Position numbers and translations under genes: made by a program. Positions 9,291-51,127 of a stretch of 64,000 bases of DNA are shown here, one piece after another. The DNA is taken from NCBI RefSeq assembly GCF_024166365.1, contig NC_064841.1:46311680-46375679 (forward strand), read 5' to 3'. The notes below the pieces were generated by a model. It made no database searches. It was not told where the DNA came from and saw only the letters and a program-made list of their open reading frames with translations. Positions within the stretch are counted from its first letter, which is position 1. Each line of letters begins with the position of its first letter. The DNA comes from Elephas maximus (taxonomy: Eukaryota).

Positions 9291-12200
9291 TCTTCTATTA
9301 CCCAGTGGTTTTTAAGCAGGGTGTTATTTAGTTTCCATGCAATTGATTTTTTTTTTTTTTCTCCCTTGCTCTTCCTGTTCTTAATTTCTACTGTTATGGC
9401 ATTGTGGTCTCAGGAGATGCTTTGTATTACCTCAATGTTTTGGATTTTGTTGAGGGTTGCTCTGTGAACTAAGATGTGGTCTGTTCTGGAGTATGGTCTG
9501 TGTGCATTGGAAAAGAATGTGTACTTTGTAGCTGTTGGGTGGGGTGTTCTATATATGCCTGTGAGGTCAAGTTGGCTGATTGTGTTTCTTACTAGATGTT
9601 CTGTCCTTTACCGAGAGTGCTGTGTTTGAAGTATCCTACTATTATTGTGGAAATGTAAATTTCTCTTTTCAGTTGTTAGAGTTTGTTTTATGTATTTTGG
9701 AGCCCTGTCATTGGGTGTGTAGATGTTCATTATGGTTAAGTTTTCATGATGGATCCATCCCTTTAATCATTATATATTGTCTTTTACGGTGGATTTTGTT
9801 TTAAAGTCTATTTTATCTGAGATTAGTATTGCTACTCCTGCTCTTTTTTGGTAGTTTTTGCTTGATATATTTTTTCCATCCTTTGATTTTTAATGAGTTT
9901 ATGTCCTTGTTCTTAAGGTGTGTCTCTTGTAGACAGCATATTGATGGATCCTGATTTTTAATCCATTCTGTCACTCTCTATATCTTTATGGGTCCATTTA
10001 GGCCATTTATACTCAGTGTAATTATTGATAGGTGTGAGTTTATTGCTATCATTTTGTAGTGCTGACAGTTTTTTTGTTCTGCTTACTCTCCTGAGCCATA
10101 TACCTTTTGTTTGTGGATTTCGTTTTCATTTCTTTTCTTTCGAGACAGTTTGTTTACTTTCTTTGTAGTTACTTTGAAATTTACCCTTATCTTTCTAGGT
10201 TTGAACCAGTTTATTATTACTTGGTACAGCCTTGCCTTCCTCTCCATTAGTAAATTCTATACCTACACCATTTATGCCCTCTTTTATTGTTCTGACATTG
10301 TTGTCATTTACAGATTAACCTCTGCGGTTCCATGTTGCAGTTCTTTTGGTTTTGCATAGTCCTTGAGAGTTCATTTCCTCGGTTGGTATGTGGCTGGTAC
10401 AATCTTGCATCCTAGATTCAGGGTGCAGTCTGATATTTGTTCTCAGACTGAAGGACTCCCTTTAATCTTGTAAGTTTGGTTTGGCTTTTACATATTCCCT
10501 TAATTTCTGTTCATCTGGAAATGTCCTAATTTCACCATCACATTTGAATGAGAGTTTTGCAGATTCTTGGTTGGCAGCTTCTTTCTTTCAAGGTTTTATA
10601 TATGTCATCCTGTTGCCTTCTTGCCTACATAGCTTCTGCCAAATAATCAGACCTTAGTCTTATTGTTTCTCTTCTGTATTTGACTCTGTTTTTCTCAAGC
10701 TGCACTCAGGGTTTTTTCCTTGTCTTTGGTTTTAGTGAGTGTAACTATGATATGCCTCGGTGATGTTCCTTTGGGGTCTATCCCATATGCGGTTCGTTGA
10801 GCTTCTTGGATGGTCAGCTTTTCGTCTTTCATATTAGTGAAGTTTTCTGTCAGCAATTCTTTAATGATTCTCTCTGTGTTTTCCATTTTCTCCCCTTGTT
10901 CTGAAACTCCAATCACTCTCAAATTTTTGCTTTTGATTGTATCCCACATAATTCTCAGGGTTTCTTTATTTTTCTTCATTCTTTTTTCTGGCTTTTTCTC
11001 AAACAGAGTTGTATCCAAGTGTTTTCAATTTTGCTGATCCTGTCTTCCATTGTTTCAAAACCTGCTCCTCAGCCCTTTTATGACACTGTCCATTTCTGAA
11101 ATCTTGCTGTTTACCTTTTGGATTTTGAATTGTTGTTTTTGTATGATTTCTAGTTGTGAATTTATTTTAGCACCTTGTTCCTGTATTTTCCTGAATTATT
11201 CCATTTTTTGGTCTATCTTTTCCATGAATTTGTCTGCCTTTTCCACGAATTTGTCTATTTTTCCTCATTTTTGTCTGCTTTTTCTTCAACTCTTGGATAG
11301 CTGAGAATATTAGAGATTTGAATTCCTTGTCAGGTAGTTCTAGTACCTTTTCTTCTACTGGAAAGTCATCTGTGTTTTATTTTGGATGCCTACTGGAACC
11401 ATCCTGTCCTTTTTTTAAATATATTTTGATATCGTCTGCTGTCTTCAGGACATTCAGTAGTTATTTTCTTCATTTATTGATTGTAGATCTGTTTGGTTCA
11501 TCCTGCTTTTTTGTTTTATTTGGTTATGTCTGAGCGGGGGGGGCTGTGCGATCTTTGTTGTGTACTTGTCTGTGGTCATGATACTTTTCACTTCCTTGTC
11601 CAATGGGCAGGGTCAGTCGCTCAATTATGGTGCAGCAGGGCAGGTCCAGCTGAAGGGTAGGGAGTGGGGTGGGTTGTTTCTGGAACATACTAAGGCTGAC
11701 AGGGTGGGCTGGGAATCAGTGCTGGGCAGGTCCTGGTAGGCTGTGCCTGTGGTGCTCAGGGGTGTGCTGTTCAGTGCACAGTGCAGGTAGGCAGGAAGGA
11801 GGGGGAAGGTTGTGATGTCTGGACCTAATATGGGCATGGGAAAGAGGAGAGAGGAACAGGAGCCAAAAGCAAACAAACAAACAAAAAAAAAAAAAAGAGT
11901 GATAAGGGAGCTTGCCATTGGAGTGGAGATGAGAAACTGAGAAATGGAGAAAAACAAAAAGGAAAAAAGAAACACAAAGGGAAAAAATAACTAGATAAAA
12001 ATTTGGGAAAAAAAAAGAAAAGAAAAGCCCCCCAGGGGTCCCACTGGTGTGGCTTCAATGACCTGGGATTGGCTCCCAGGCTGTGCAGTATAGCCTGGGT
12101 AGAGGGGGTATAGATGCCACAAAGCACCAGATGTTGAAGAGATAGGGAAAGAAGGTAAGTATAGAGAGATGAGAACTGAAAAATGAAGAAAGACAAAAAG

Positions 12201-13280
12201 GAAAAAAGAGAAAGAAAGAAAGAAAGAAAAAAGAAATGCCCTCAGGGATCCCACTGACATGGCTGCACAGACTGGGGAAGTGGCTCCTAAGCTGTGCAGT
12301 GCAGCCCAGCTGGAATGGGCTCTCAAGCCACAAAAAGAGAAAGAAAACAAACAAAACAGAACAAAGCAAAATAAAATAGAATAAAAATCCCAGGGATCCC
12401 ACCAGCCTGGTATTGCAGGCCAGTGGAGTTGTTCCCCAGTCAAGCAACTCTTCACAGCCTTTCAAGAAGAAGCAAAGATGGCATTCAGAACCAGGTACTC
12501 GAGAAAAAGGAGGGAGAGGTGGGGGGAGACATGGAAGAAACCAAAAGAAACAGAAAAAAGCAATATCAGCAACAGACAAATGGCACTCAGTGAGCCTGCC
12601 AGTGTGGGAAAGGTGAATCCAAGCAGCCTGAGGTTGAAGCAGTTGCCTTCCTGCCAAGAGACTGCAGCAGGTAGGAAGCAGAGGAGGCTGGGTGGGGAAG
12701 AAGGGTGGGAGTTAAAAAAAAAATTAGGAAAGCATAAATCGCTGGTTATCAGGTGCTCTGTCTCCTGCTGGGAACTTCGTAAAGCTGCTTTCCTCTACTC
12801 CCTGTCTGCCGATCTTCAATGTGGATGGGGCGAATTCAGCAGCATGGACGCTGCACTCACTGGCCAGCCAAGCCACCATTGCCAGCCAGGAAGCAAGGAG
12901 GTAGAATAGCAGGGAGAGGAAGGGGAGTGAGAAAGCATGTATTGGTGGTTACCAGGTGCTCTGTCTTCTGCTGGGAGCTCCATGAAGCTGCATTCCTGTG
13001 CTCCCTGTCCAGCAATCTCCATCAGGAGTCCAAGATGGCGGATCCGTGCTGCGTTAGCTGATAGGGGTCCTCTGCACATATCTCTCCTCACTCTACTCTC
13101 TGTCAGTTCATTATTCCCTTTGGTGCTTGGCTGAGCTCTTTATCTCTTCATTTAACACTTCAGGTTCCAGGATTGGCATTTGTCTCTGCTATTTGCCTCT
13201 TAGTTTTTTGGAACTTTGCTGTGGGGGGATGGCATGGTGCTTCTGTCTATGGTGCCATGTTAGCTGGAAGTCCACCAAGT
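9291..13280 (-). mobile_element. L1 of a second, diverged lineage ('type B'), 5' portion in antisense: ORF2 first ~300 codons (9291-~10050), ORF1 (~10090-11340), 5'UTR ~1.9 kb (11350-13280) with two ~210-bp tandem monomers at its 5' end
   Basis: Minus ORF 10695-11018 (KETLRIMWDTIKSKNLRVIGVSEQGEKMENTE...PRHIIVTLTKTKDKEK) is an L1 ORF1 C-domain. Plus-strand 9300-9467 is the antisense image of ORF2 just after the EN domain and is identical in kind to the minus ORF 39275-39667 opposite a sense ORF2. The 5'UTR 11350-13280 is collinear with 27862-29740. Confidence 0.8.
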
Positions 13281-27830: not shown

Positions 27831-27861
27831 CATGACCAGCGTAGTTAAAAGACCTATGTTC

Positions 27862-30009
27862 CAGACTTCTGGCCATCATGGCACCACAACATCCCTGCAC
27901 AGCAAAAACCCAAAAAACTGTGTAAAATAGAGACAAACGTCACTCCTGAAACCTGAAGTGTCAAATGAAGAGATAAAGAACTCAGCCAGCCACCGAATGG
28001 AATAAGAAGCTAACAGAGACAGAGAGCTAGGAGATATACGTGCAGAGGTTCCCTATCAGCTAATGCAGCACAGATCTGCCATGTTAGACTCCTGTCAGAG
28101 ATCAGTGGACAGGGAACATGGGAAAGCAGCTTCACAGAGCTCCCAGCAGGAGACAGAGCACCCAGTAACCAGCAATACATGCCTTCCCACCCCCATCCTC
28201 TCCCCACTATTCTATCTCTGCACTTCCTGGATGGCAGTAGTGGCTCTGCCAGCCGTGATGTGCAGTGTCCGTGCCGCTTGGATTCGCCTCACCTGCAATG
28301 GAGATCAGCGGACAGGGAGTACGGGAGAGGAGCTTCATGAAGTTCCCAGCAGGAGAGAACCCAGTAAATAGTGATATACGCTTTCCTAACCGCCACCCTT
28401 CTTCCCCCCAACCTTGGCCTCCTTTGCTTCCCGCTGGCTGCAGTCTCTTGGATGGGAGGCAACTGCTTCCACTCTGGGTGGGTTGGATTCACCCTACCCA
28501 CACTGGGTGGCTCACTAAGTGCCCTGTCTGTTCCTGACACTGCTTTCTTCCATTTCTTTTGGTTTCTTCCATGCCTTCCATCACCTCTGCCCTGCACCCC
28601 TTTCTCTCGAACACCTGGCTCTGTGTGCCATCTTTGCTTCTTCTTGAAAGGCTATAAAGCACTGCTCAATTGGGGAACCATGCCCCTGGCTGAAGACACC
28701 ATGCTGGTGGGATCACTAGGGCTTTTTTTTTCTTTTTTGCTTTGTTCTGTTCTATTTGCTTGTTTGTTTTCTTTTTCTTTTCACAGCTTGGGAGCCCCTT
28801 CTAGCCAGGCTGCACTGCACGACTTAGGAGCCACTTCCCCAGTCAGTGGGATTCCTGGGGGCATTTCTTTTTTCTTTCTTTTCCTCTTTCTGTTTTTTCC
28901 TGTCTGTCATTCATTTGTCAGTTCTTGTCTTTCTATACTTACCTTCTTTTCCTGTCTCCTGAATACCTGGCACTGTCGGAAATCTATACCTCCTAGCCAA
29001 GCTATATTGCACAGTCTGGGAGCCACACCCCTTTCTTTGCATCTGCACCAGTGGGACCCCTGCAAGCTTTTTTTCCCTTTCTGCTTTTCAAATTTTTATC
29101 TAGTTACTTGTTTTTGTCTTTTCTTCTTTTATTTTTCCATTTTGTTTTCCTCCATTTCTTAGTTTCTCACCTCTCCACTCCAATGGCAAGCTCCCTTAGC
29201 ACTCTTTTTTCTTGCTTGTTTCTTTTTGGCTTCTGTTTCTCTCTCACGCTCTCCTCTTTCCCATACACATATTAGTTCCGCACATCACAACCTCCCCCTG
29301 CCCTTCCTGCCTACCAGCACTGCGCCCTGAACATCACACCCCTGAGCAGCACAGTCACAGTCTACCGGAACCTGCCCAGTACTGATTCCCGCCCTGCCCC
29401 GTTAACCCTAGTACATGCCACAAACAACCCATCCCAGCCCCTCCCCTTCAGCTGGACCTGCCCTGCTGCACCACAGCTGAGCAACTGGACCTGTCCATTG
29501 GGCAAGGAGGTGAGAAGTATTGTGACAACAGACGAGCAAACAAAAAAGAATGCACAGCTCACCTGCTCAGACATAATGAAATAAAACAAAAAAGCAGGAT
29601 GAAACAAACAGGTCTACAATCAATAAACAAAGAAAATAACTACTGAATGTCCCAAAGACAGAGACAATATTAAAAAATATTTTAAAAAATTAAAAAAAAA
29701 AAACAGGACAGGATGGTTCCAGTAAAAAAAAAAAAAAATTGAGTAAAGGTTCCAGTAGGCATCCAAAATTAAATACCAGATGACTTTCTAGTAGAAGAAA
29801 AGGCACCAGAACTACCTGACAAGGAATTCAAATATCTAATACTCAGAGCTATTCAAGAGTTGAAGTAAAAAGCAGACAAAAATGAAGAAAAAATAGACAA
29901 ATTCATGGAAAAGACAGACCAAAAAATGAAAGGATTCAGGAAAACAATACAGGAACAATATGCCAAAATAAATTCACAACTAGAAACCATACAAAAACAA
30001 TTAGAAATC
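27862..30009 (+). mobile_element. L1 'type B': 5'UTR (two tandem monomers 28020-28400, then a pyrimidine-rich body) and first ~90 codons of ORF1 (from ~29745). It is interrupted by the young L1
   Basis: Collinear with the reverse complement of 11050-13280. ORF1 start ...PELPDKEFKYLILRAIQELK.KADKNEEKIDKFMEKTDQKMKGFRKTIQEQYAKINSQLETIQKQLEI| continues in the same frame at 37526. Confidence 0.8.
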
Positions 30010-30289
30010 TGGAGGCGGGGCCAAGATGGCGGACTAGGTGGACCCTACCGCGGATCCCTCTTGCAACAAAGACTTAGAAAAACAAGTGAATCGATCACAT
30101 ATATAACAATCTACGAACTCTGCACAACAAACACAGACTTAGAGACGGAGAACGAACAAATACGGGCAGACAGCGATCGTTTTCAGAACTAAGAGCCAGC
30201 GTACCAGGCAGGTGACCTTCGGAGCCCGGGCTGGGGCAGAGCCCAGGGGGACAGACGGCACAGACAAGGGGCCCAGCCCTACCCACCCC

Positions 30290-31090
30290 GAACCCATCCC
30301 GGGAGGAAGTCTAGCTGGTTGGCGTGGGCGGTGTAGCGGCGAAGCCGGTGGGAGAAACGCCCGGGAGGAAGTGACGGATCTTGGAGCGGAGAGAGCAGCG
30401 TCCCAGCCGGGGCGCCGTCCCGCTGGGAGTTTGGCGGGAGGCGGGCGAGACGCGAGCGTGGGGATCACCTATATTTCCCTAAAGCGACCCCGGGGGGGGA
30501 CGCCCAGACATTCGTGAGGGCCATGTCCACCCAGTTCGCGCGAGCGGTGCGGCGCACTGGAGGGAGAAATCCCCGGGAGGAAGTGACCGGTCTTGAAGCA
30601 GGGAGAGCAGCGTCCCAGCCAGGGAGCCGTCCCGCTGGGATTTTGCGAGAGCGGGCGGGGTGTGAGTGCATTCCCCTGAATAGGCCCCGGGGGCGAGCCC
30701 GGCTATTCATGAGGGCCACGCCCACCCAGTTCGCGCGAGCGGTGTGGCGTACCGGAGGGAGAAATCCCCGGGAGGAAGTGACGGGTCTCGGAGCGGGGAG
30801 AGCAGCGTCCCAGCTAGGGAGCCGTCCCGCTGGGATCTTGGCGAGAGCGGGCGGGGTGTGAGCACATTCCCCTGAATAGACCCCGGGGGCGTGCCCAGCT
30901 GTTCGTGAGGGCCACGCCCACTCAGTTCGCGCGAGCGGTGCGGCGCACCAGAGGGAGAAATCCCCGGGAGGAAGTGACTGATCTTGGAGCGGGGAGAGTA
31001 GCGTCCCAGCCGGGGAGCCATCCTGCCGGGATTCTGGCGGACGGGGGCAGGACGTGAACGCGGGGATCAGCTCTATATTCTGTGGTGCTA
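30290..31090 (+). promoter_or_regulatory. L1 5'UTR tandem CpG-rich monomer array (~4 copies of ~195-213 bp), a putative L1 promoter
   Basis: A repeating unit cccgggaggaagtgac(c/g)g(g/a)tcttg(g/a)agcggggagagcagcgtcccagc(c/t)(a)gggagccgtcccgctgggat.ttggcgagagcgggcggggtgtgag...gttcgtgagggccacgcccac.cagttcgcgcgagcggtg(c/t)ggcg.ac..gagggagaaat recurs at ~30362, 30573, 30768 and 30962. CpG density is very high. Confidence 0.7.
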
Positions 31091-31229
31091 CACGCCTAGC
31101 TTTCTGATTCCTCCCCACCCTCCCCAGGCGGCTCCATTAACATCCGAATACCCTGAGCCAGAAGGAGAATTCAGATAGGGATCCGACTGCATTTTTTTTA
31201 GCTGATTACCTGGAAAATCTAGTTTCCCA

Positions 31230-32292
31230 GTGATGGCTCAGAGACAGCAGTCCATATCAAACCACATAAAGAAACAGACCATGACAGCTTCTCCAACCCC
31301 CCAAACAAAAGAATCAAAATCTTTCCCAAATGAAGATACAATCCTGGAATTATCAGATACAGAATATAAAAAACTAATTTACAGAATGCTTAAAGATATC
31401 ACAAATGAAATTAGGATAACTGCAGAAAAAGCCAAGGAACACACTGATAAAACTGTTGAAGAACTCAAAAAGGTTATTCAAGAACATAGTGGAAAAATTA
31501 ATAAGTTGCAAGAATCCATAGAGAGACAGCATGTAGAAATCCAAAAGATTAACAATAAAATTACAGAATTAGACAACGCAATAGAAAGTCAGAGGAGCAG
31601 ACTCGAGCAATTAGAATGTAGACTGGGACTTCTGGAGGACCAGGGAATCAACACCAACATAGCTGAAAAAAAAATCAGATAAAAGAATTAAAAAAAATGA
31701 AGAAACCCTAAGAATCATGTGGGACTCTATCAAGAAGGATAACTTGCGAGTGATTGGAGTCCCAGAACAGGAAGGGGGGACAGAAAACACAGAGAAAATA
31801 GTTGAAGAACTCCTGACAGAAAACTTCCCTGACATCATGAAAGACAAAAGGATATCTATCCAAGATGCTCATCGAACCCCATTTAAGATTGATCCAAAAA
31901 GAAAAACACCAAGACATATTATCATCAAACTTGCCAAAACCAAAGACAAACAGAAAATTTTAAAAGCAGCCAGGGAGAAAAGAAAGGTCTCCTTCAAGGG
32001 AGAATCAATAAGAATAAGTTCAGACTACTCAGCAGAAACCATGCAAGCAAGAAGGGAATGGGATGACGTACACAGAGCACTGAAGGAGAAAAACTGCCAA
32101 CCAAGGATCATATATCCAGCAAAACTCTCTCTGAAATATGAAGGAGAAATTAAGATATTTACAGATAAACACAAGTTTAGAGAATTTGCAAAAACTAAAC
32201 CAAGACTGCAAGAAATGCTAAAGGAGATTGGCCTGATGACCAATAATATCAGGTACCAGCACAATACAAGGTCACAAAACAGAACGTCCTGA
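31230..32292 (+). pseudogene. L1 ORF1 with a single frameshift (segments 31230-31682 and 31717-32292)
   Basis: MMAQRQQSISNHIKK...coiled coil...IAEKKIR. then ...MWDSIKKDNLRVIGVPEQEGG...PRIIYPAKLSLKYEGEIKIFTDKHKFREFAKTKPRLQEMLKEI. Removing one A from the A9 run at 31661-31669 restores ...AEKKSDKRIKKNEETLRIMWDSIK. Confidence 0.8.
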
Positions 32293-32712: not shown

Positions 32713-35700
32713 ATGACAGCACTAAAAACTTATTTATCTATAATTACGCTGAATGTAAATGGACTAAATGCACCAATAAAGAGACAAAGAGTCACGGACT
32801 GGATAAAGAAACACGATCCATCTATATGCTGCCTACAAGAGACACACCTTAGACTTAGAGACAGAAACAAACTAAAACTCAAAGGATGGAAAAAAATATA
32901 TCAAGCAAACAATAAGCAAAAAAGAAGAGGAGTAGCAATATTAATTTCCGACAAAATAGACTTTAGACTTAAATCCGCCACAAAGGATAAAGAAGGACAC
33001 TATATAATGATAAAAGGGACAATTGATCAGGAAGATATAACCATATTGAATATTTACGCACCCAATGACAGGGCTACAAGATACATAAATCAAATTTTAA
33101 CAGAATTGAAAAGCGAGATAGACACCTCCACATTTATAGTAGGGGACTTCAACACACCACTTTTGAAGAAGGACAGGACATCCAGTAAGAAGCTCAATAG
33201 AGACACGGAAGACCTACTTACAACAATCAACCAACTTGACCTCATAGACTTATACAGAACTCTCCACCCAACTGCTGCAAAATATACTTTTTTTTCTAGT
33301 GCACATGGAACATTCTCTAGAATAGACCACATATTAGGTCATAAAACAAATCTTGGTAGAATTCAAAACATCGAAATATTAGAAAGCATCTTCTCAGACC
33401 ACAAGGCAATGAAGCCAGAAATCAATAACAGAAAAACTAGGGAAAAGAAATCAAATACTTGGAAAATGAACAATACCCTCCTGAAAAAAGACTGGGTTAT
33501 AGAAGACATCAAGGAGGGAATAAGGAAATTCTTAGAAAGCAACGAGAATGAAAAGACTTCCTATCAAAACCACAGCAAAAGCAGTGCTCAGAGGCCAATT
33601 TATATCGATAAATGCACACATACAAAAAGAAAGAGACAAAATCAGAGAACTGTCCCGACAACTTGAACAAATAGAAAGTGAGCAACAAAAGAACCCATCA
33701 GGCACCAGAAGAAAACAAATCATAAAAATTAGAGCTGAACTAAATGAATTAGAGAACAGAAAAACAATTGAAAAAATTAACAAAGCCAAAAGCTGGTTCT
33801 TTGAAAAAATTAACAAAATTGATAAACCATTGGCTAGACTGACTAAAGAAAAACAGGAAAGGAAACAAATAACCCGAATAAGAAACGAGAAGGACCACAT
33901 CACAACAGAGCCAAATGAAATTAAAAGAATCATTTCAGATTACTACGTAAAATTGTACTCTAACAAATTCGAAAACCTAGAAGAAATGGATAAATTCTTA
34001 GAAAAATACTACCTACCTAAACTAACACATTCAGAAGTAGAACAACTAAATAGACCCATAACAAAAAAAGAGATTGATACAGTAATCAAAAAACTTCCAA
34101 CAAAAAAAAGCCCTGGCCCGGACGGCTTCACTGCAGAGTTCTACCAAACCTTCAGAGAAGACTTAACACCACTACTACTGAAGGTATTTCAAAGCATAGA
34201 ACAAGAAGGAATACTACCCAACTCATTCTATGAAGCTACCATCTCCCTGATACCAAAACCAGGTAAAGACATTACAAAAAAAGAAAATTACAGACCTATA
34301 TCCCTCATGAACATAGATGCAAAAATCCTCAGCAAAATTCTAGCCAATAGAATCCAACAACACATCAAAAAAATAATTCACCCTGATCAAGTGGGATTTA
34401 TACCAGGTATGCAAGGCTGGTTTAATATCAGAAAAACCATTAATGTAATCCATCACATAAATAAAACAAAAGATAAAAACCACATGATGTTATCAACAGA
34501 TGCAGAAAAGGCATTTGACAAAGTTCAACACCCATTTATGATAAAAACTCTTACCAAAATAGGAATTGAAGGAAAATTCCTCAACATAATAAAGGGCTTT
34601 TTTTATGCAAAGCCAACAGCCAATATCACTCTAAATGGAGAGAACCTGAAAGCATTTCCCCTGAGAATGGGAACCAGACAAGGATGCCCTTTATCACCAC
34701 TCTTATTCAGCATCGTACTTGAAGTCCTAGCCAGGGCAATTAGGCTAGACAAAGAAATAAAGGGTATCCAGATTGGCAAGGAGGAAGTAAAGCTATCACT
34801 ATTTGCAGAGGACATGATCGTATACATGGAAAACCCTAAGGAATCCTCCAGAAAACTACTGAAACTAATAGAAGAGTTTGGAAGAGTCTCAGGTTATAAT
34901 ATAAACATACAAAAATCACTTGGATTCCTCTACATCAACAAAAAGAACACCGAAGAGGAAATAACCAAATGAATGCCATTCACAGTAGCCCCCAAGAAGA
35001 TAAAATACTTAAGAATAAATCTTACCAAGGATGTAAAAGACCTATACAAAGAAAACTATAAAACTCTGCTACAAGAAATTCAAAAGGACATACTTAAGTG
35101 GAAGAACATACCCTGCTCATGGATAGGAAGACTTAACATAGTAAAAATGTCTATTCTACCAAAAGCCATCTATACATATAACGCACTTCCAATCCAAATT
35201 CCAATGTCATATTTTAAGGGGATAGAGAAACAAATCACTAATTTCATATGGAAGGGAAAGAACCCCCGGATAAGTAAAGCATTACTGAAAAAGAAGAAGA
35301 AAGTGGGAGGCCTCACTCTACCTGATTTCAGAACCTATTATACAGCTACAGTAGTCAAAACAGCCTGGTACTGGTACAACAACAGGCACATAGACCAATG
35401 GAACAGAATTGAGAACCCAGATATAAATCCATCCATGTACGAGCAGCTGATATTTGACAAAGGACCAGTGTCAGTCAATTGGGGAAATGATAGTCTTTTT
35501 AACAAATGGTGCTGGCATAACTGGATATCCATTTGCAAAAGAATGAAACAGGACCCATACCTCACACCATGCACAAAAACTAACTCCAAGTGGATCAAAG
35601 ACCTAAACATAAAGACTAAAATGATAAAGATCATGGAAGAAAAAATAGGGACAACCCTAGGAGCCCTAATACAGGGCATAAACAGAATACAAAACATTAC

Positions 35701-36508
35701 CAAAAATGATGAAGAGAAACCAGGTAACTGGGAGCTCCTAAAAATCAAACACCTATGCTCATCTAAAGACTTCACCAAAAGAGTAAAAAGACCACCTACA
35801 GACTGGGAAAGAATATTCAGCTATGACATCTCAGACCAGCGCCTGATCTCTAAAATCTACATGATTCTGTCAAAACTCAACCACAAAAAGACAAGCAACC
35901 CAATCAAGAAGTGGGCAAAGGATATGAACCCAGAAGATATTCAGGCAGCCAACAGATACATGAGAAAATGCTCCCGATCATTAGCCATTAGAGAAATGCA
36001 AATTAAAACTACGATGAGATTCCATCTCACACCAACTAGACTGGTATTAATCCAAAAAACACAAAATAACAAATGTTGGAGAGGCTGCAGAGAGATTGGA
36101 ACTCTCATACACTGCTGGTGGGATTGTAAAATGGTACAACCACTTTAGAAATCCTTCTGGCATTATCTTAAACAGTTAGAAATAGAACTACCATACAACC
36201 CAGAAATCCCACTCCTCGGAATATACCCTAGAGATACAAAAGCCTTCACACAAACAGACATATGCACACCCATGTTTATTGCAGCTCTGTTTACAATAGC
36301 AAAAAGCTGGAAGCAACCAAGATGTCCGTCAACGGATGAATGGGTAAATAAATTGTGGTATATTCACACAATGGAATACTACGCATCGATAAAGAACAGT
36401 GACGAATCTCTGAAACATTTCATAACATGGAGGAATCTGGAAGACATTATGCTGAGCGAAATGAGTCAGAGGCAAAAGGACAAATATTGTATAAGACCAC
36501 TATTATAA
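32713..36508 (+). pseudogene. L1 ORF2 (endonuclease, reverse transcriptase, Cys-rich C-terminus) with three lesions
   Basis: The EN ORF 32713-33666 changes frame to the RT ORF 33548-34972 (overlap 33548-33666). There is an in-frame TGA at 34970-34972 (...[19 protein letters not shown]) and a TAG at 36146-36148 (...CKMVQPL*). Homology continues to 36508 (...KDKYCIRPLL*). Confidence 0.85.
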
Positions 36509-37525
36509 GATCTTGAGAAATAGAAAAAACGGAGAAGAACACATACTTTTGTGGTTACAAAGGGGGGAGGGAGGGAGGGAGGGAGAGGGTTTTTTATTGA
36601 TCAATCAGTAGATAAGAACTGGTTTGGGTGAAGGGAAAGACAACACGCAATACAAGGAAGGTCAGCCTAATTGGACTGGACTAAAAGCAAAGAGGTTTCC
36701 GGGATAAAATGAAAGCTTCAAAGGTCAGCGGAGCAGGGGCTGGGGTCTGGGGAACATGGTTTGAGGAGACTTCTAAGTCAACGGGCAAAATAATTCTATT
36801 ATGAAAACATTCCGCATCCCACTTTGAATTGTGGCGCCTGGGGTCGTAAATGCCAACAAGCGGCCATCTAAGATACATCAATTGGTCTCAACCCACCTGG
36901 AGCAAAGGCAAAGGAAGAACACCAAGGTCACACGACAACTAAGAACCCAAGAGACAGAAAGGGCCACATGAACCAGAGACCGACATTATCCTGAAACCAG
37001 AAGAACTAGTTGGTACCCGGCCACAATCGATGTCTGCCCTGCTAGGGAGCACAACAGACAACTCCTGAGGGAGCAGGAGGCCAATGGGATGCAGACCCCA
37101 AATTCTCATAAAAAGACCATACCTAATGATATGAATGTGACTAGAGGAATCCCAGAGACAATGCTCCCCAGAACTTCTGATGGCACAGGACGGGAACCAT
37201 CCCCGAAGACAACTCATCAGGCGTGAAAAGGACTGGTCAGCGGGGGGGAGAGAGATGCTGATGAAGAGTGAGCTAATTAAATCAGGTGGACACTGGAGAG
37301 TGTGTTGGCAACTCTTGACTGGAGGGGGGATGGGAAGATAGAGAGAGAGGGAAGATGGCAAAATTGGCACGAAACGAGAGACTGAAAGGGCTGAGTCAAT
37401 AGGGGGAGAGCAAGTGGGAGAAGGGAGTATGATGTATGTAAACCTACATGTGACAGACTGATTGGAATGGTAAATGTTCACTTGAAGCTTAATAAAAATT
37501 AATTAAAAAAAAAAAAATTAGAAAT

Positions 37526-40406
37526 CCAAAACATAAACAAGATTGCAGAAATAGTGTTATAGAAAGGCTGAGGAACAGGTTTGACATAATGGAAAACAGG
37601 ATGAGTGAAATTGAAGACAAACACTTGGGTACAACTCTGAGGAAAAAACAGAAAAAAGAATGAAGACAAATGAAGAAACCCTGAGAATTATGTGGGCTAC
37701 AATCCAAAGCAAAACTTTGCGAGTGGTCGGTGTTCCAGAAAAGGGGGAGAAAACAGAAAACACAGAGATCACCAAAGAACTGCTGACAAAAAACTTCCCT
37801 AATACCATGAAGGATGAAAAGGTGACCATCCAAAAAGCTCAATGAATCCAATATAGCATAGACCCCAAAAGAAAATCACCAAGACATATCAGTCATGCTT
37901 GCTATAAACAAAGACAAAGGAAAAATCCTGAGAGCAGCTAGAGAAAAACTAAAAATCACATACAGAGAAGAAACAATACGGTCAAACTCTGATTTTTTGG
38001 CAGAGGCCATGCAGGCAAGAACGCAATGGGATGACATATATAAAACCTTGAAAAAAAAAAAAAATGCCAGCCAAGAATAATATATCCTGCAAAATCCTTG
38101 TTCAAATATGATGGTTGAAATTAGGATATTTCCAGATAAATAGAAATTAAGGGAATACGTAAAAACCAAACCAAGCTTACGAGAATTATTAAAGGGAGTC
38201 TTTCAGTCTCAGAACAAACAACATCAGACCACAGCCTGAATCTTGGATGCAAGATTGTACCAGACAGATACCAATATAGGAAGTGAACTCTCAAGGACTA
38301 TCCAAAACCAAAAAAAATACAACAGGGAACCAGAGAGGTTAATCTCTAAATGACACAACATCAGAACAATAAAAGAGGGAATAAATGGTGTAGGTATAGA
38401 ACATTCTAATGGAGAGAAAAGCAAGGCGATACCAAGTAAAAATAAACTGGTTCAAACCTAGGAAGATAAGGGTAAATTACAAGGTAACCACAAAAAAGTT
38501 AATGAACATACTCCTCAAAATAAAGAAGAAAAACAAAGTCTCAATAAAAACAAAAGAAGTAAAAAAGAAATCCACAAACAAAAGGAATTCAGCACAGGAG
38601 AGTAAGCAGAACAAAGAAAATGTCAGCACTGCAAAATAACAGTACTAAACTCACACCTATCAATAATTACACTGAATGTAAATGGCCCAAATGCACTCAT
38701 ATAGAGATAGGCAGTGGCAGAATTGAAAAAAAAACAGGATGCATCAATATGCTGTCTACAAGAGCCACACCTTAGAAACAAAGACATAAGTTTATTAAAA
38801 ATCAAAGGATGTAAAAATATATCAAGGAAGCAGCTACCAAAAAAAAAAAAAAACAAAAAAACAGCAGGAGTGACAATACTAATTTCAGATAAAATAGATG
38901 TTAAAACAAAGTCTACCGTAAAAGGCAAAGAAGGCACTATATAATGATTAAAGGGATGATCCATCATGAAGACTTAACCATAATAGACATCTACACACCC
39001 AGGACAGTTATCCAAAATACAGAAAGCAAGCTCTAACAGCAATGAAAAGAAAAACTGACAGTTCCACAATAACAGTAGGAAACTTCAACACACCACTCTC
39101 GGTAAAGGACAGAACATCTAGAAAGAAACTCAGTGAAGACACAGAAGAGCCAGAGGTCACAATCAGCCAACTTGACCTCATAGACATATATAGAACACTC
39201 AACCCAACAGCTGCAAAGTACACATTCTTTTCCAGTGCACAAGGAATGTTTTCCAGAATAGAAAACATCTTAGGTCACAGAGCAACCCTCAACAAAATCC
39301 AAACCACTGAAATAATATGAAGTGTCTTCTCTGACCACAACAGCATCAATGCAGAAATTAACAACAGGAAGAGCAAGGAGAAAAAACCAATTACATGGAA
39401 ACTGAATAACGCTCTGCGTAAAAACCACTGAGTAACAGAAGAAATTACAGATGGAATCAAAAAATTCCCAGAATCAAACGAGAATGAAACACATAAAAAG
39501 AAACAATCTTTGATGGTTACGAGGGAGGGGAGGAGTGGGTATGGAAAAACACTAAAATAGGCAACAGATAAGTGGTAACTTTGGTGAAGGGTAAGACACA
39601 GTTCACAATACTGGGGAAGCCAGCAAAACTTGTACAAGGCAAGGCCATGGAAGTTCCACAGATACACCCCTCATCCCTGAGGGACTGAATTGTTGGGCTG
39701 AGGGCTGTGGGGATCATGCTCTCAGCAAACATCTAGCTCAATTGGCATAACATAGTTTATAAAGAAAATATTCTACATTCTACTGTGGTGAGTAGCATCT
39801 GGGGTCTTAAAAGTCTGTGAGCGGCCATCTAGGATACTCCACAGGTCTTACCCCTTCAGGAGCAAGGAAGAATGAAGAAAACTAAAGATACACGGGAAAG
39901 ATTAGGACAAATGGACATCTACCACGGCCTTCACCAGACTGAGTCCAGTACAACTAGATGGTGCCTGGCTACAACCACTGACTGCTCTGACAGGGATCAC
40001 AAGAAAGGGTCCCGGACAGAGCTAGAGAAAAATGTAGAACAAAATTCTAACTCAAAAAGAAAGACCAGACTTGCTGGCCTGACAGAAACTGGAGAAACAC
40101 TGAGAGTGTGGTCCCAGACACCCGATCAGCTCAGTAAGGAAGTCACTCTGGAGATTCACCCTTCAGCTGAAGATTGGACAGACCCATAAAATAAAACGAG
40201 ACTAAAGGGGCACACCAGCCCTGGGGCAAGGACTAGAAGGCAGGAGGGGACAGGAACGCTGGTAATAGGGAACCTAAGGTTGATAAGGGAGAGTGTTTAC
40301 ATGTCATGGGGTTGTTGACTAATGTCATAAAACAATATGTGTACTGTTTAATGACAAACTAGTTTGATCTATAAACCTGAATATAAAGTACAAAAAAAAA
40401 AAAAAA
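37526..40406 (+). mobile_element. L1 'type B' continuation: rest of ORF1 (to ~38200), inter-ORF spacer, ORF2 endonuclease (38640-~39500), internal deletion of the RT region (junction ~39510), ~0.9 kb 3'UTR, A15 tail
   Basis: ORFs 37660-37845 and 37895-38080 are the ORF1 C-domain. ORFs 38714-38944 and 39042-39320 are the ORF2 EN domain. 39510-40391 is collinear with the 3'UTR 36520-37500 (ggtcttaaaagtctgtgagcggccatctaggata...) and ends aaaaaaaaaaaaaaa. Confidence 0.8.
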
Positions 40407-44663: not shown

Positions 44664-44665
44664 GG

Positions 44666-47438
44666 TGCAGGGCCATGATGGCAGAGTAGTCAGACACTTC
44701 CTGTGGTCCCTCTTACAACAAAGACCCAAAAAAGCCAATGAATCAATTACATACGACAATCTAGGAGCCTTGAACATCAAAGGCAAGGTTGAAGAATCAG
44801 ACTGAGGGACAGGGGAGGGAGAGATGGTTCAGAAGCAGTGAGGAGTTGCCAGTGGGAACCACCACCCTGCAGGCTGGATCGCCATGTGCGGTAAGGCAAG
44901 CAGTGGCGCTTGGGATGCGTTTTCCACATAGGGAGAGGCTGAGGAGCAGAGTCTGCTCAACCTCCAGAACCAGCAAGAAGCAGCACTCAATCAGCAAAAC
45001 ATAAGTACATGCATCTAAGCTACCACGTGGTTCAAAAAACACCACCTTTGGGAAGAACTTCTCTCCCATTTACCTGCTCCCTCCCTACTCTGCACCAGGT
45101 CTGGGCTGGCTTCAGCAACTGCTGCACACCCTGGGCTGGAAGAGCACCCATCAAATGTTCTGAGCCATTCTCCCAGCTTTGGAGAGGGAACAAATTAACA
45201 AACAGGAAAAAATTACCTGCCAGCTCCCCTAAGCTGGAAACTCAGGGCAGGCACAGTTCCTTTGTCTAGGCACAGGCATAAGGGGGTCCACAGACTTTGA
45301 ATGCCTTTCACCCCTGCATAGACCTGTGTGGGCTCACTCCATTGCATAGGTCCTCATTACCACACTACAACAGGGTATACACCTGAAGTCTAAGTTCAAC
45401 TGTATCAGCTATAAGGTGGAGTGGGAGGTTCATGACATTTAACACTGCTCTGCTCATTAGCAAGGTCCTCACTTAAGCACATCAGGGACCTAAGGACCGG
45501 TGGTTTCACCCATATCACCTAGCCACTCATGACAAGGATCCAAGAATAAGTGCTGCCTCCCAGTCCCTACAGCCAATAGCATTGGGTACCCATACTCTGG
45601 CTGCAAAACCTACCCATCTACATGCTCCAGGGAACGGGGACACGCTTTCCTCCCAGACACTCAGGAGCAGCCGTAAGCCTCTTGCCTTACTCAGCACATG
45701 ATCCCCTACTGGAGCCAGATACCTGTGCCTACGCCAATCACCCCTGTCCATCTAGAACTGTAGGTGAGAGCCTGAACCACACACTACGTGACTGACAACC
45801 TAGACACCTAAGATGAATTTATACAAGAAAAGCAAACGGACTCCTGGGTTCACATACCTAGTAAAAACTCTTAATGACCCTGGTGACAGGACATGAGAGC
45901 TTCAAATGTGACAATTATCAACTAGCTCACATGACTGGCCTATTTGGGCATATTAAAACAAGAAGCTAGAATATAGTATACAAACATAAATAAATATAAT
46001 AACTTATTGATGGCTTGGAAACAACAGTCAACATCAAATCACATAAAGAGGCAGGACATGATGGCTTCAGTAAGTGAGCAAAACAAGAATCAAGAAATCT
46101 TCCGGAGGAAGATAATTTCTTGAAATTACCGGCAATAGAATTCAAAAGATGAATATACAGAGTTCTTCCTGAGATCAAGAGGGAGATCAGGAAAAATGCA
46201 GAACAAGTCGGGGAACACACAGTCAAAGCTATAGAGGAAATTAAGAAGGTTATGCAAAGCATAATGATAATTTTAATGGGCTGCAAGAATCCATAGAGAG
46301 ACAGCAAACAGAAATCTAAAAGATTAACCACAAAATTTCAGAATTAGACAACTCAATATTAAGTCATAGGAGCAGTATTGAGGCAGAAAGTCAGAATTAG
46401 TGAAGTCAAAGATAAAGCACTTGACACCAACTCATTTGAGGAAAAAGCAGAAAAAAGAATTAAAAAAAAAATGAAGAAACCCCAAGAATTCTGTGAGACT
46501 CTATCATGAGGAATAACCTACGAGTGATTGGAGTACCAGAACAGGGGTAAATAACAGAAAATACACACAGAATTGCTGAAGATTTGTTGGTGGAAAACTT
46601 CCCTGATATCATGAAAGATGAGAAGGTATCTATCCAAGAAGCTGATTGAACTCCACACAATGTAGATCCCAAAAGAAAGCCACCAAGACATATTATAATC
46701 AAACTTAAAAAACCAAAGGTAAAAAGAGAGTTTTAAGAGTGGCTAGGGATAAACAAAAAGTCATCTACAAAGGAGAGTCAAGAAGAGGAAGCTTGGACTA
46801 CTCAGCAGAAACCATGCAGGCAAGAAGGCAATGGGATGACATATATAAAGCCTTGAAGGAAAACACCTGGCAGCCAAGAATTATATACCCAACAAAACTC
46901 CCAACCATGACAGTGAAATTAGGGCATTTCCACATAAACAGAAGTTAAAGGAATTTGTAAAAACCAAACCAAAATTAAAAGAAATACTGAATGGAGACTT
47001 CTGGTTAGAAAATCAGTAATATCAGATAATAACAGAAGACTAGAACACAGGATAGAATAACCAGGTATCAACCCAGAAAGGGAAGTCACAAATAAAGCTA
47101 AAACACTGAAAATAGGGAAACAGAGACATCAATATGTAAAAGATGACAACATTAAAACAAAACATAGGGATTAAATGTAGTCACAGATCTTTCATATGGA
47201 GAAGAAGTCAAGGTGTTGTAAAGAAACAAAAGATTGTTTAAACTTAGAAAAATCGAGGTAAATATTCAGGTATCCACAAAGGAAACTAACAATCCTACAC
47301 ATCAAAATAAAAACCATAAAGACTCAGTAAATACAAAATCAAGAACAATGAAAAGAAAATACATAAAGAAAAATGACTCAGCTCAGAAAATTAAGTGGAA
47401 AAAAGAAAGTGTCAACAACACACACCAAAAAAATACAT
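44666..47438 (+). mobile_element. L1 5' portion: 5'UTR type 'b' (~1.4 kb, non-monomeric), ORF1 (degenerate), inter-ORF spacer. It ends exactly where the ORF2 ATG would start
   Basis: Start gtgcagggccatgatggcagagtagtcagacacttcctgtggtccctcttacaacaaagacccaaaaaagcc. Collinear with 6418-9000. The last bases ...acacaccaaaaaaatacat correspond to ...aaaaaaagacatcaaaATG of the 6418 copy. Confidence 0.8.
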
Positions 47439-48060
47439 GAAGGCGGGGCCAAGATGACTGACTAGGTAGAAGCTACAGCGGATCCCTCTTACAACAAAGA
47501 CTCAGAAAAACAAGTGAATCGAGCACATATATGACAATCTACAAGCCCTGACCATCAAACACAGAACTAAGGAGCTGACCTGAGTGACAGGGGAGCAAAA
47601 AGCCACACTCTGAAGCGGCAACCGCTTCTGGAACCAGCGTTCCGTGCCACAGCCTTGAGCCTTTGCGGTTCCCTGGTGCCAGAGTGGTGGGGCTGATCAC
47701 GGCTTCCTGAGGCGGCGCAAGCAAGGGACGCAGCCCTCGCGCCCTGAAGTAACCTCGGCGGAAACCCAGCCAGCCCACACAGGCTGCACAACGACTCAGT
47801 TGACAAGAGAAGGAGAAATCGCAGGGAAGGCAGGGATTGGTTTTGGAGCCTGGAGTGCAGCGTCCCAGCCAGAAAACCTTGGCACTGGGCTTTGGACTAG
47901 GAGCGGAGGAACTGATCACAGCTTCCTGAGACAGCACAAGCACAGGACGAAGGCCTGACCTTTGAGGACAATCTCGACCCAGCCAGCTGGCGCACACAGG
48001 CTACACGGCCCTCTGGAATCTCAGATAAAACAGTCATCACCAAGCAAGATAAGTAACTGT
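47439..48060 (+). mobile_element. L1 5'UTR fragment of a third type (shared ~120-bp leader plus two ~220-bp monomers)
   Basis: gaaggcggggccaagatgactgactaggtagaagctacagcggatccctcttacaacaaagactcagaaaaacaagtgaatcgagcacatatatgacaatctac closely matches 30011-30120. Downstream monomers contain gcagcgtcccagccag as in the 30.3-31.1 kb array. Confidence 0.75.
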
Positions 48061-50610
48061 CTATATTGCCAGCACACTACTCTTCTTTGGTGAAGTGCCT
48101 GTTCATATCTTTTGCTCATTTTTTAACTGGGTTATTTGTCTTTTTGTTGTTGAGTTTTTGCAGTATCATATAGATTTTAGAGGTCAGAAGCTGATAGGAA
48201 ATGTCATAAAAAAGCTAACACTTTTTCCCAGTCTGTATGTAATCTTTTTACTCTTTTGGTGAAGTCTTTGGATGAGCATAGGTGTTTGATTTTTAGGAGC
48301 TCCCCGGTATCTAGTTTCTCTTCTGGTGTTTGTACATTGTTAGTAATGATTTGTATACTGTTTATGCCATGTATTAGGGCTTCTAGCATTGTTCCTATTT
48401 TTTATTCCATAATCTTCAGCATTTTAGATTTTATAGTTAGGTCTTTGATCCATTTTGAATTTGTTTTTTGTGCGTGGTGTGAGGTGTGGGTCTTGTTTCA
48501 TTTTTTTGCAGATGGGTATCCAGTTATGTCAGCACCATTTGTTAAAGAGACTGTCAACTGTCTTTTCCTCATTTAACTGACTTTGGGCCTTTCTCAAATC
48601 AAATATCAGCTGCTCATATGTGGATGGATTTATGTCTGGATTCTCAATTCTGTTCCACTGGTCTATGTATCTGTTGTTGTACCAGCACCAGGCTGTTTTG
48701 ACTACTGTGGTGGTATAATAGGTTCTAAAATCAGGTACAGTGAGGCCTCCCACTTTGTTCTTCTTTTTCAGTAATGCTTTACTTGTCTGGGGCCTCTTTC
48801 CTTTCCCCTTCCATATGAAGTTGGTTATTTGTTTCTCAATCTCATAAAAAAATGTCGTTGGAATCTGAATCAAAATTCCATTGTATCTACAGATCTCTTT
48901 TGGTAGAATAGATATTTTTACAATGTTAAGTTTTCCTATCCATGAGCAAGGTATGTTTTTCCACTTATGTAGGTCTGTTTTGGTTTCTTGCAGTAGTGTC
49001 ATGTACTTTTCTTTGTATAAGGCTTTTACATCTCTGGTAAGATTTATTCCTAAGTATTTTATCTTCTTGGGGGCTATTGTAAATGGTATTGATTTGGTGA
49101 TTTCCTCTTCGATATTCTTTTTGTTGTTATAGAGGAATCCAACTAATTTCTGTATGTTTATCTTGTATCCTGACACTCTACTGAACTCTTCTATTAGTTT
49201 CAGTAGGTTTCTTGAGGATTCCTTAGGGTTTTCTGTGTATATGATCATGTCATCTGCAAATAAAAATTCTTTTGCTTCTTCCTTGCCAATCTGGATGCCC
49301 TTTATTTCTTTATCTAGCCTAACTGCTCTGGCTAGGACCTCAGGCACAATGCTGAATAAGAGTCGTGATAAAGGGCATCCTTGTCTGGTTCCCAGTCTCA
49401 AGGGGAATCCTTTCAGACTCTCTCCATTTAGAATGATGTTGGCTATTGGCTTTGCGCACTGGGTTTTTTTTGGCTTTGTATAAATGTCCTTTTTTATGTT
49501 GAGGAATTTTCCTTCTATTCCTATTTTGCTGAGAGTTTTTATCATGAATGTGTGTTGTACTTTGTCAAATGCCTTTTCTGCATCAGTTGATAAGATCATG
49601 TGGTTCTTGTCTTTTGTTTTGTTTATATGATGGATTACATTAATTGTTTTTCTAATGTTGAACCATCCCTGCATACCTTGTATGAATCTCACTTGGCCAT
49701 CGTGAATTTTTTTTTTTTTTGGATATGGTGTTGAATTCTATTGGCTAGAATTTTTTTTGAAGATTTTTGCATGTAAGTTCGTGAGGGATATAGGTCCATA
49801 ATTTTCTTTTTTTGTGTGATGTTCTTACCTGGTTTTGGTATCAGGGATATGCTGGCTTCATAGAATGAGTTTGGGAATATTCCATCCATTTCTATGCTCT
49901 GAGATACCTTTAGTATTAGTGGTGTTAACTCTTCTCTGAAAGTTCAGTAGAAGTCTGCAGTGAAGCCATACCAGCCAGGATTGATTTTTTTTTTTTTGGC
50001 GGGAGTTTTTTGATTACCTTTTCAATCTCTTATTTTGTTATGGGTTTCTTCAGTTGTTCTACCTCTGTTAGTTTAGGTAAGTAGTGTGTTTCTAGAAATT
50101 CATCCATTTCTTCTAGGTTTTCAAATTTGTTAGAGTACAATTTTTCATAGTAATCTGATAAGTTTCTTTTAATTTCAGCTGGGTCTGCTGTGATATCGCC
50201 CATCTCATTTCTTATTCGGGCTATTTCCTTTCTCTCCTCTTTTTTTTTTTAAATCATTTTGGCCAAAAGTTTATCAATTTTGCTAAATTTTTCAAGGAAC
50301 CAGCTTTTGATATTGTTAATTGCTTTTCTGTTCTCTATTTCATTTAATTCTGCTATAAAAAATTCTGCTATAATTTTTATTATTTGCTTTCTTCTGGTTC
50401 CTGAAGTGTTTTTGTTGTTCTTGTTGCTCTCTATTTGTTCAAGTTGTAGGGATAATTCTTTGATTTTGACCCTTTCTTCTTTTTGTACGTGTGCATTTAT
50501 TGATATAAGTTGACCTCCAAGCACTGTTTTAGCTGTATCCCAAACGTTCTGATAGGAAGTATTTTCATTCTCATTGGATTCTATGAATTTCTTTATTTTA
50601 TCCCTGGGTT
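48061..50610 (-). mobile_element. L1 ORF2 (codons ~330-1060, RT domain) in antisense
   Basis: Minus ORF 48529-49692 (387 aa: ...[81 protein letters not shown]...) and minus 50249-50524 are collinear with the ORF2 of 33548-36148. Confidence 0.85.
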
Positions 50611-51125
50611 AGTGGAGCTGGCTGATTATCTTTTCCCCCAGTTGTGAATTTATTCCTCTTCCATGGCTGGGAGAATGGCTCAGATTGCTCAGCAGGGCAT
50701 ATCTCAGGCCCAGGGAAACTGACAGTCACTGAAGCTGGCTTGGGGGCTGGGGGCACAGTAAAATATATGCAAGAACTTAGCTTTTGCCCAGAGCATCATT
50801 CTTCTTTGGTTCCAGAGGTGTGAGTAGGCTGTGCAGCTGGCTGTTTCTCCCTGAGGAAACTGCAGCTGAAGACTACCACCAGCCCACCACAGTCACTCCT
50901 GCGAATGGTGCCTGAGGGTTCCTGGTGATTCAGGTCCAGCAACTCCTCTCTGCTTCTGAACCGTCTCTCTCTCTCCCTCTGCTGCTCAGTCTGTTTTCTA
51001 ACTTTGCCTTTGATGTTCAGGGCTCCTACGTTGTCATAAATATAATCTTTTCACTTGTTTTTTCAGGTCTTCATTGTAAGAGGGATCACCGGAAGCGTCT
51101 GACTACTCCACCATCTTGACCCCAC
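50611..51125 (-). mobile_element. L1 5'UTR (type 'b') first ~500 bp, antisense
   Basis: The reverse complement of 51107-51125 is ggtggggtcaagatggtggagtagtcagacgcttccggtgatccctcttacaatgaagacc, the L1 leader. The rest is collinear with 6418-6900 and 44666-45200. Confidence 0.7.
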
Positions 51126-51127
51126 CC

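Follow-up and report, generated by a model that had tools for sequence, protein, structure and literature searches.

The 5'UTRs of the L1 retrotransposons analyzed here probably belong to one lineage that was remodelled by tandem duplication, deletion, and CpG decay, and the window (the entire stretch of 64,000 nucleotides from Elephas maximus) would hold successive families of a single L1 lineage. A first-pass annotation of this DNA had proposed repeated replacement of the 5'UTR behind a retained YY1 module. One half of this proposal stands, in that successive families keep the same leader while the architecture of their 5'UTRs changes. The other half does not, since the bodies that follow the leader appear to be homologous, and we therefore speak of remodelling.

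We also put forward, tentatively, that elephant L1 may preserve nearly all the intermediates through which a non-repetitive 5'UTR gave rise to a monomeric CpG-island promoter, by tandem duplications and deletions within it while the initiator leader stayed fixed. If this is true, some apparent "5'UTR swaps" in L1 would be rapid remodelling of existing sequence and not the capture of foreign sequence. The biology of the arms race between transposons and their hosts still has to account for the way in which L1 renews its promoter. Should the series hold genome-wide, it would provide a worked example in which the intermediates survive and a new promoter is built from old parts, and it would document a monomeric L1 promoter with a separate YY1 leader, unlike that of the mouse.

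A young L1 with a monomeric 5'UTR

The window contains a full-length, 7.5-kb L1 that extends from position 30010 to a poly(A) tract at ~37517. Its 5'UTR covers positions 30010–31232, and its insertion site lies within ORF1 of an older element (the host L1). The parts of the young element and its flanks are as follows:

29999..30009 (+): target-site duplication, 5' copy, AATTAGAAATC, 11 bp
30010..30144 (+): leader, the true 5' end of the element, adjoining the target-site duplication
30145..30317 (+): first unit (A/M0), degenerate; the unit profile finds its core at 30147–30231, which is colinear with unit A in the 47439 copy
30318..30533 (+): monomer M1, 216 bp, ending in the region of the CTATATT landmark
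30534..30728 (+): monomer M2, 195 bp
30729..30924 (+): monomer M3, 196 bp
30925..31072 (+): monomer M4, cut short to ~148 bp and leading into the CTATATT landmark at 31073
31073..31232 (+): tether of ~160 bp between the monomers and ORF1, homologous to positions 447–547 and 757–824 of L001 (a Loxodonta element introduced below) and weakly to the old-type body
31233..32292 (+): ORF1, broken by a stop at 31680–31682 and a frameshift
32713..36148 (+): ORF2, split in three where the frame shifts near 33600 and where an in-frame stop lies at 34970–34972
36149..37515 (+): end of ORF2, G-rich tract, long 3'UTR of ~1 kb, AATAAA, and poly(A)
37516..37526 (+): target-site duplication, 3' copy, AATTAGAAATC, 11 bp

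The AATAAA signal and A-run at 37505–37517, together with the target-site duplication, identify this sequence as an L1 insertion. Pfam detects Transposase_22 (E 7e-23) and Tnp_22_dsRBD (E 3e-25) in positions 31681–32289, that is, the domains of L1 ORF1p. ORF2 contains Exo_endo_phos (E 2e-23) and RVT_1 (E 5e-41), which correspond to the APE-type endonuclease and the reverse transcriptase. A spacer of ~420 bp separates the two ORFs. Because a few stops and frameshifts interrupt them, we consider this copy young but dead. The two halves of ORF1p match sequences from Loxodonta africana, Elephas maximus, and one ENA metagenome contig with 74–95% identity. The next matches come from bats, pig, horse, and primates and drop to ~58%. 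A protein search with the N-terminus of ORF1 returned two proteins only, and ORF1 is 95% identical to P0001 and P0241 (Elephas).

The first-pass annotation had noticed about four GC-rich monomers of ~200 bp at 30010. We confirm four units of 216, 195, 196, and ~148 bp and add the degenerate fifth. TRF reports a 196-bp period with 2.8 copies at 30486–31039, and an earlier 216-bp copy begins at 30318. The mean column identity among M1–M4 is 80%. With a GC content of 63% and a CpG observed/expected ratio (o/e) of 0.84, this 5'UTR is the sole strong CpG island within the window. Inspection by eye reveals three motifs in each monomer: GGAA (ETS-like), CCACGCCC (Sp/KLF-like), and TTCGCGCG (E2F-like). 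By analogy to mouse L1, the monomers would probably raise promoter strength as stacked promoter/enhancer modules. Transcription itself would still start at the leader, not within the monomers.

A search of positions 29900–31400 against Rfam found no RNA family and so gives no hint of a known small RNA as the source of the monomers. ARAGORN found no tRNA-like genes in the window. An antisense ORF of 217 aa runs across the monomers (30468–31118, −). It contains no Pfam family, and in our view it is a by-product of the GC-rich repeats. The public "proteins" P0243 (64% identical), P0245, and P0246 are antisense translations of other monomer arrays. Read in this way, public data contain further arrays of ≥3 and ≥4.7 units.

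The leader and the bodies behind it

The other L1 5' ends in the window fall into an old type, an oldest type, and one truncated copy:

6420..7543 (+): old-type 5'UTR, leader plus non-repetitive CpG-poor body; ORF1 from 7544
44664..46007 (+): old-type 5'UTR; ORF1 from 46008
50598..51130 (−): old-type 5'UTR reduced to its first 533 nt, with ORF2 position ~3501 following directly
47439..48087 (+): 5'UTR-only fragment, cut off by an antisense piece of L1 ORF2
27866..29700 (+): oldest-type 5'UTR of the host L1, diverged leader plus a T-rich body of ~1.83 kb
11410..13276 (−): oldest-type 5'UTR, second copy; its leader aligns with old-type leaders (z 7–8)

The copies at 30010, 47439, 6420, and 44664 (+) and at 51130 (−) begin with a common leader of ~135 nt that includes a YY1-type box (CAAGATGGCGG). 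This leader had been placed at 6418, 30010, 44666, 47439, and, antisense, at 51125; it is real, with ends that lie within 2–5 nt of these positions. The two oldest-type 5' ends, at ~27866 (+) and ~13276 (−), were absent from that list, and both carry a diverged copy of the leader. The five closer leaders align over ~135 columns with a mean column identity of 77%. By BLAST, the leader at 30010 is 87% identical to that of the 47439 copy over 128 nt (E 2e-39) and 69–74% identical to its three counterparts in the older copies 6420, 44664, and 51130 (E 1e-5 to 1e-17). The 20-mer GGCCAAGATGGCGGACTAGG occurs twice with up to 3 mismatches, compared to 0 occurrences expected from shuffles.

In the young element, positions 30011–30033, next to the target-site duplication, read GGAGGCGGGGCCAAGATGGCGGA. 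This G-rich run followed by CAAGATGGCGGA is the usual start of a mammalian L1 and contains a predicted YY1 site, with the YY1-type core CAAGATGGC at 30022–30030. The core is exact in the leaders at 30010 and 6420, and the other leaders carry single changes, several of the CpG-decay type. The exact core is confined to the leader: the monomers contain one match with one mismatch, on the opposite strand of M4. The box CAAGATGGCGG lies ~12 nt from the 5' end and presumably sets RNA polymerase II at the first base. Initiation at this base would cause the internal promoter to be copied into every L1 transcript. Fixing initiation at the first base is the role ascribed to the YY1 box of human L1 in the summary given in PMC5381506, and the position of the box in elephant L1 would fit this role.

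Judging from the alignments, the leader is retained across families, but its conservation is not unusual. The notion of a specially conserved leader is at odds with the comparison of L001 and the 6420 copy, in which the leaders are 69% identical, the 3' parts of the 5'UTRs 67%, and the ORFs ~78% (an estimate derived from an overall alignment at 75.2%). Exact-pattern scans for the leader found no match in JGI metagenome contigs (two patterns) or in GTDB genome contigs. An exact CCAAGATGGCGGA at 13031–13043 (+) was considered as an eighth 5' end and dropped, as it has no leader homology and is followed by neither ORF1 nor an endonuclease. It sits opposite the antisense T-rich 5'UTR and probably occurs there by chance.

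Behind the leader, a long CpG-poor body is common to the copies at 6420, 44664, and 51130, as the first-pass annotation had described, with 69–79% identity, some indels, and a CpG o/e of 0.15–0.19. In the last of these copies an internal deletion of ~3 kb at 50597/50598 (−) joins position 533 of the 5'UTR to ORF2 position ~3501. The 47439 copy consists of a leader (47439–47575), unit A (~47577–47812), unit B (~47813–48060), and a CTATATT at 48061. Two units of ~220 bp had been reported for this copy. They are recognizable as a weak internal repeat with a period of ~219 bp (47682–47789 vs 47901–48006, 71%), which TRF did not detect.

The sequences downstream of the leader had been said to diverge completely and to form at least three unrelated bodies. 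Comparison of the bodies with sensitive scoring suited to ~65% identity contradicts both statements. Nucleotides 4–425 of the 30010 copy are colinear with nucleotides 3–457 of the 47439 copy over ~450 nt (E 2e-38). The 47439 copy in turn is 70% identical to the 6420 copy at its start (nt 3–194 vs nt 5–194), and its unit A (nt 235–374) aligns with nt 190–327 of the 6420 copy with a z of 9.9, a score that none of 500 dinucleotide shuffles reached. A profile of the later units matches the 30010 copy five times (E 1e-7 to 3e-16) and unit A of the 47439 copy (E 2e-10). The same profile scores 9.3 bits against nt 218–328 of the 51130 copy, where the best of 300 shuffles scored 2.0 bits.

A profile built from the old 5'UTR leads to the same connection from the other side. 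It is colinear with L001 over positions 376–1389, reaching ORF1 (E 2.5e-104), and it assigns 37 bits to L001 151–830 alone, 10.1 bits to the tether of L002 (a young-type element from a metagenome contig), and 1.9 bits to the tether at 30010; the best of 800 shuffles scored −2.1 bits. The profiles thus tie both the monomer and the tether to the old body. Direct alignment of the monomer core (~110 bp) of L001, L002, and 30010 to the old body was not significant (z < 2.3), and the link between this core and the old body is carried by the single 47439 copy and by profile matches of modest score. As far as sequence comparison can tell, the bodies with monomers (30010, 47439) are homologous to the old, CpG-poor one via intermediates. 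Because the bodies are connected in this way, we read the change between them as remodelling by duplication and deletion. Between the old and the monomeric type we did not find what defines a replacement, namely, non-homologous bodies attached to ORFs of one lineage.

Loss of CpG contributes to the contrast between the types. The CpG o/e values form a series of 0.84, 0.61, 0.49, and finally 0.15–0.19, and the changes from CpG to TG or CA are asymmetric (9/20 in one direction vs 0/6 in the other). The older copies look CpG-poor and unrelated in part because methylated CpGs decayed after insertion.

These observations suggest the following series. The old type (6420, 44664, 51130) would represent the starting point, with a leader, a segment S (~nt 140–370, up to the CTATATT landmark), and a long 3' region R. 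Segment S would have been duplicated in tandem to give units A and B, as in the 47439 copy. L001 from Loxodonta would retain one B-like unit and all of R. In the youngest lineage (L002, then 30010), deletions of ~209 and ~568 bp would have cut R down to the tether of ~160 bp, and B would have been amplified to four CpG-rich monomers.

Intermediate elements and alternative explanations

L001, a 7.7-kb L1 on L. africana CM057419.1, has a poly(A) tail, and its target-site duplication is GGAGAG(C/T)AGT. As this duplication flanks the element, the intermediate 5'UTR transposed as one unit. It consists of the leader (89% identical to the 47439 copy), one B-like unit (83%), the young tether sequence in two pieces ~209 bp apart, and, as far as ORF1, ~568 bp of the old-type body. 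L002 and L004 are contigs of the metagenome assembly ENA ERZ18707846. They contain elephant-type L1, one of the young and one of the old type, and that sample therefore includes host DNA. Searches for ORF1p-based loci in genome contigs and viral contigs found no relatives.

The identity of ORFs to those of the 30010 element ranks the copies by relative age: 92% for L002, 87% for L001, 82% for 51130, 78% for L004, 75% for 6420, 70% for 44664, and 68% for the host L1. The order of events in the proposed series is read from single decayed copies and three outside loci (L001, L002, and L004) rather than from consensus sequences of families. The 47439 copy, a truncated fragment, has neither ORFs nor a target-site duplication and is hence undatable, and its two-unit architecture occurs only once.

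Behind a leader retained as an initiator module, the bodies could have been repeatedly replaced by unrelated captured sequence. Primates and mouse provide documented cases of such replacement (PMC3600994, PMC5381506), and standard BLAST of the 30010 copy against the old copies detects the leader only. We nevertheless regard it as unlikely, because the homology of the three named bodies can be demonstrated and is colinear, and because L001, an intermediate flanked by a target-site duplication, retains the old 3' body. The best case for replacement is the oldest type. The two T-rich 5'UTRs of ~1.85 kb (11410–13276 and 27866–29715) are 80.5% identical over 1804 columns and contain internal repeats of their own (for example 28098–28205 vs 28301–28406, 74.5%). 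When the oldest type is compared to the old type, the leader alone is detectable, even by profile: the leaders score 9.6 and 2.7 bits (shuffle maximum −1.0), the bodies score below the shuffle maximum, and the old-5'UTR profile has no match in the T-rich body. The ORFs of the two types are, however, only ~68% identical, for which reason the T-rich body may be saturated by divergence, as expected for a faster-evolving UTR, instead of replaced. The step from the oldest to the old type appears to be the sole candidate for a true replacement, and saturation would explain it equally well.

Remodelling within one lineage also has to be weighed against the idea that the architectures of L001 and the 47439 copy are not lineal steps and instead arose by recombination, through template switching or at the DNA level, between co-existing old and young families. 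Recombination between families is well documented for mouse and rat L1 (PMC3600994), and the BLAST blocks of L001 look mosaic-like. This explanation seems to us rather improbable. Positions 825–3162 of L001 align with positions 539–2871 of the 6420 element as one continuous block at 75% (75.2% overall) that runs from the 5'UTR into ORF2. Within this comparison the 5'UTR is less similar than the ORFs (67% vs ~78%, the latter an estimate), which argues for descent rather than a recent graft. In addition, the ORFs of L001 are 87% identical to those of 30010 and 75% to those of 6420, in agreement with the place of its 5'UTR in the series. The least probable explanation by a wide measure is that leader and body were joined by chance chimerism, by rearrangement after insertion, or by an artefact of assembly. 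Rearranged L1 junctions do exist in the window (9288/9291, ~48088, and 50597/50598), and the 47439 fragment ends at one of them (~48088). Even so, target-site duplications enclose the entire 30010, L001, and host elements; that of the host L1 is ACCTATGTTCCA at 27855–27866, with a diverged copy after its poly(A) at ~40406. Three copies of the old type and two of the oldest type repeat the same junction of leader and body, and the architecture is found again in an independent assembly (L001) and on a metagenome contig (L002). The leader-body units are transposed L1s and not chance chimeras, a conclusion supported by the duplications on 30010 and L001 and by these recurrent copies.

Two of the rearranged junctions, at 9288/9291 and ~48088, join L1 sequences tail to tail with no poly(A) between the arms. 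At 9288/9291 a plus-strand L1 cut in ORF2 adjoins a minus-strand L1 cut in ORF2; at ~48088 a plus-strand L1 cut in the 5'UTR adjoins a minus-strand L1 cut in ORF2. Inversion by twin priming was considered for both and rejected, since the geometry is wrong given that no poly(A) separates the arms. These junctions may reflect rearrangement, deletion, or assembly error.

Known L1 promoters and related public sequences

The window represents ordinary L1 biology with a routine set of families, and its main features (a YY1 start and tandem motifs) have been published. Boissinot and Sookdeo (2016, PMC5381506) described a YY1-box start in nearly all mammalian L1, with 14 sampled species including elephant and hyrax. 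For elephant they reported a tandemly triplicated motif of ~70–100 bp in the 5'UTR, based on a dot plot of one family. They also gave spacers of 423–719 bp between ORF1 and ORF2 across opossum, elephant, hyrax, and pig, and a 3'UTR of 994 bp. The statement that such 5'UTRs are not characterised for afrotherian L1 is weakened by this report of the YY1 start and the tandem elephant motif. Papers on how the 5'UTR types of elephant L1 succeeded one another, or on where the repeats came from, did not turn up in an incomplete literature search, and their absence is weak evidence. The most useful new point would appear to be the chain of intermediates, carried by few, decayed copies.

The 30010 element resembles the active elephant family of PMC5381506 in its CAAGATGGCGGA start, its GC- and CpG-rich 5'UTR with a tandem motif, its spacer of ~420 bp, and its 3'UTR of ~1 kb. 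It differs in containing four units of 195–216 bp (M4 ~148 bp) and a degenerate one, a comparison made by description only. PMC5381506 covers neither the older elephant families nor the origin of the repeats.

Tandem CpG-rich monomers of ~200 bp followed by a non-repeated tether upstream of ORF1, as in the 30010 element, are the arrangement of mouse L1Md (A, Tf, Gf), again compared by description. In mouse L1Md monomer counts differ among copies and families (PMC5381506, PMC9022269, PMC6454616). Unlike the monomeric promoters of the mouse, in which elements start within monomers that bring their own initiation signals and no separate leader, the 30010 element and L001 start at a unique leader, as verified by their target-site duplications.

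For replacement of the L1 5'UTR in primates and mouse, PMC5381506 and PMC3600994 cite Khan 2006 and Sookdeo 2013. In elephant, as in these cases, families of a single lineage differ most in the 5'UTR while the start motif persists. Replacement in primates and mouse is defined by non-homologous 5'UTRs, whereas the change from the old to the monomeric type in elephant L1 appears colinear with intermediates; the one step with a resemblance to replacement leads from the oldest to the old type. In primates the changes of the 5'UTR appear punctuated, "without transitional intermediate sequences" (PMC13174262).

Elephant L1 sequence also surfaces in public records of other kinds. Two Elephas maximus indicus gene models, P0002 and P0241, consist largely of L1 ORF1 sequence. 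NCBI names these models [quoted passage not shown] and "uncharacterized protein LOC126084693", and they are likely annotation artefacts. The junction of the young tether with ORF1 is also found in an Elephas maximus gene model (FSGKTSFPVM). A protein search with the ORF2 endonuclease returned only short ENA contigs and the contig L003, none of them with a 5'UTR. In L003 (GCA_964261755.1, CAXVQW010051269.1, 1–15646), bacterial two-component and NTPase-like genes run into the ORFs of a 5'-truncated L1. Its endonuclease shares 70% identity with the 30010 endonuclease, and a reverse transcriptase ORF lies beside the endonuclease ORF. L003 looks like a chimeric contig or like host contamination in a MAG-like (metagenome-assembled bacterial genome) assembly.
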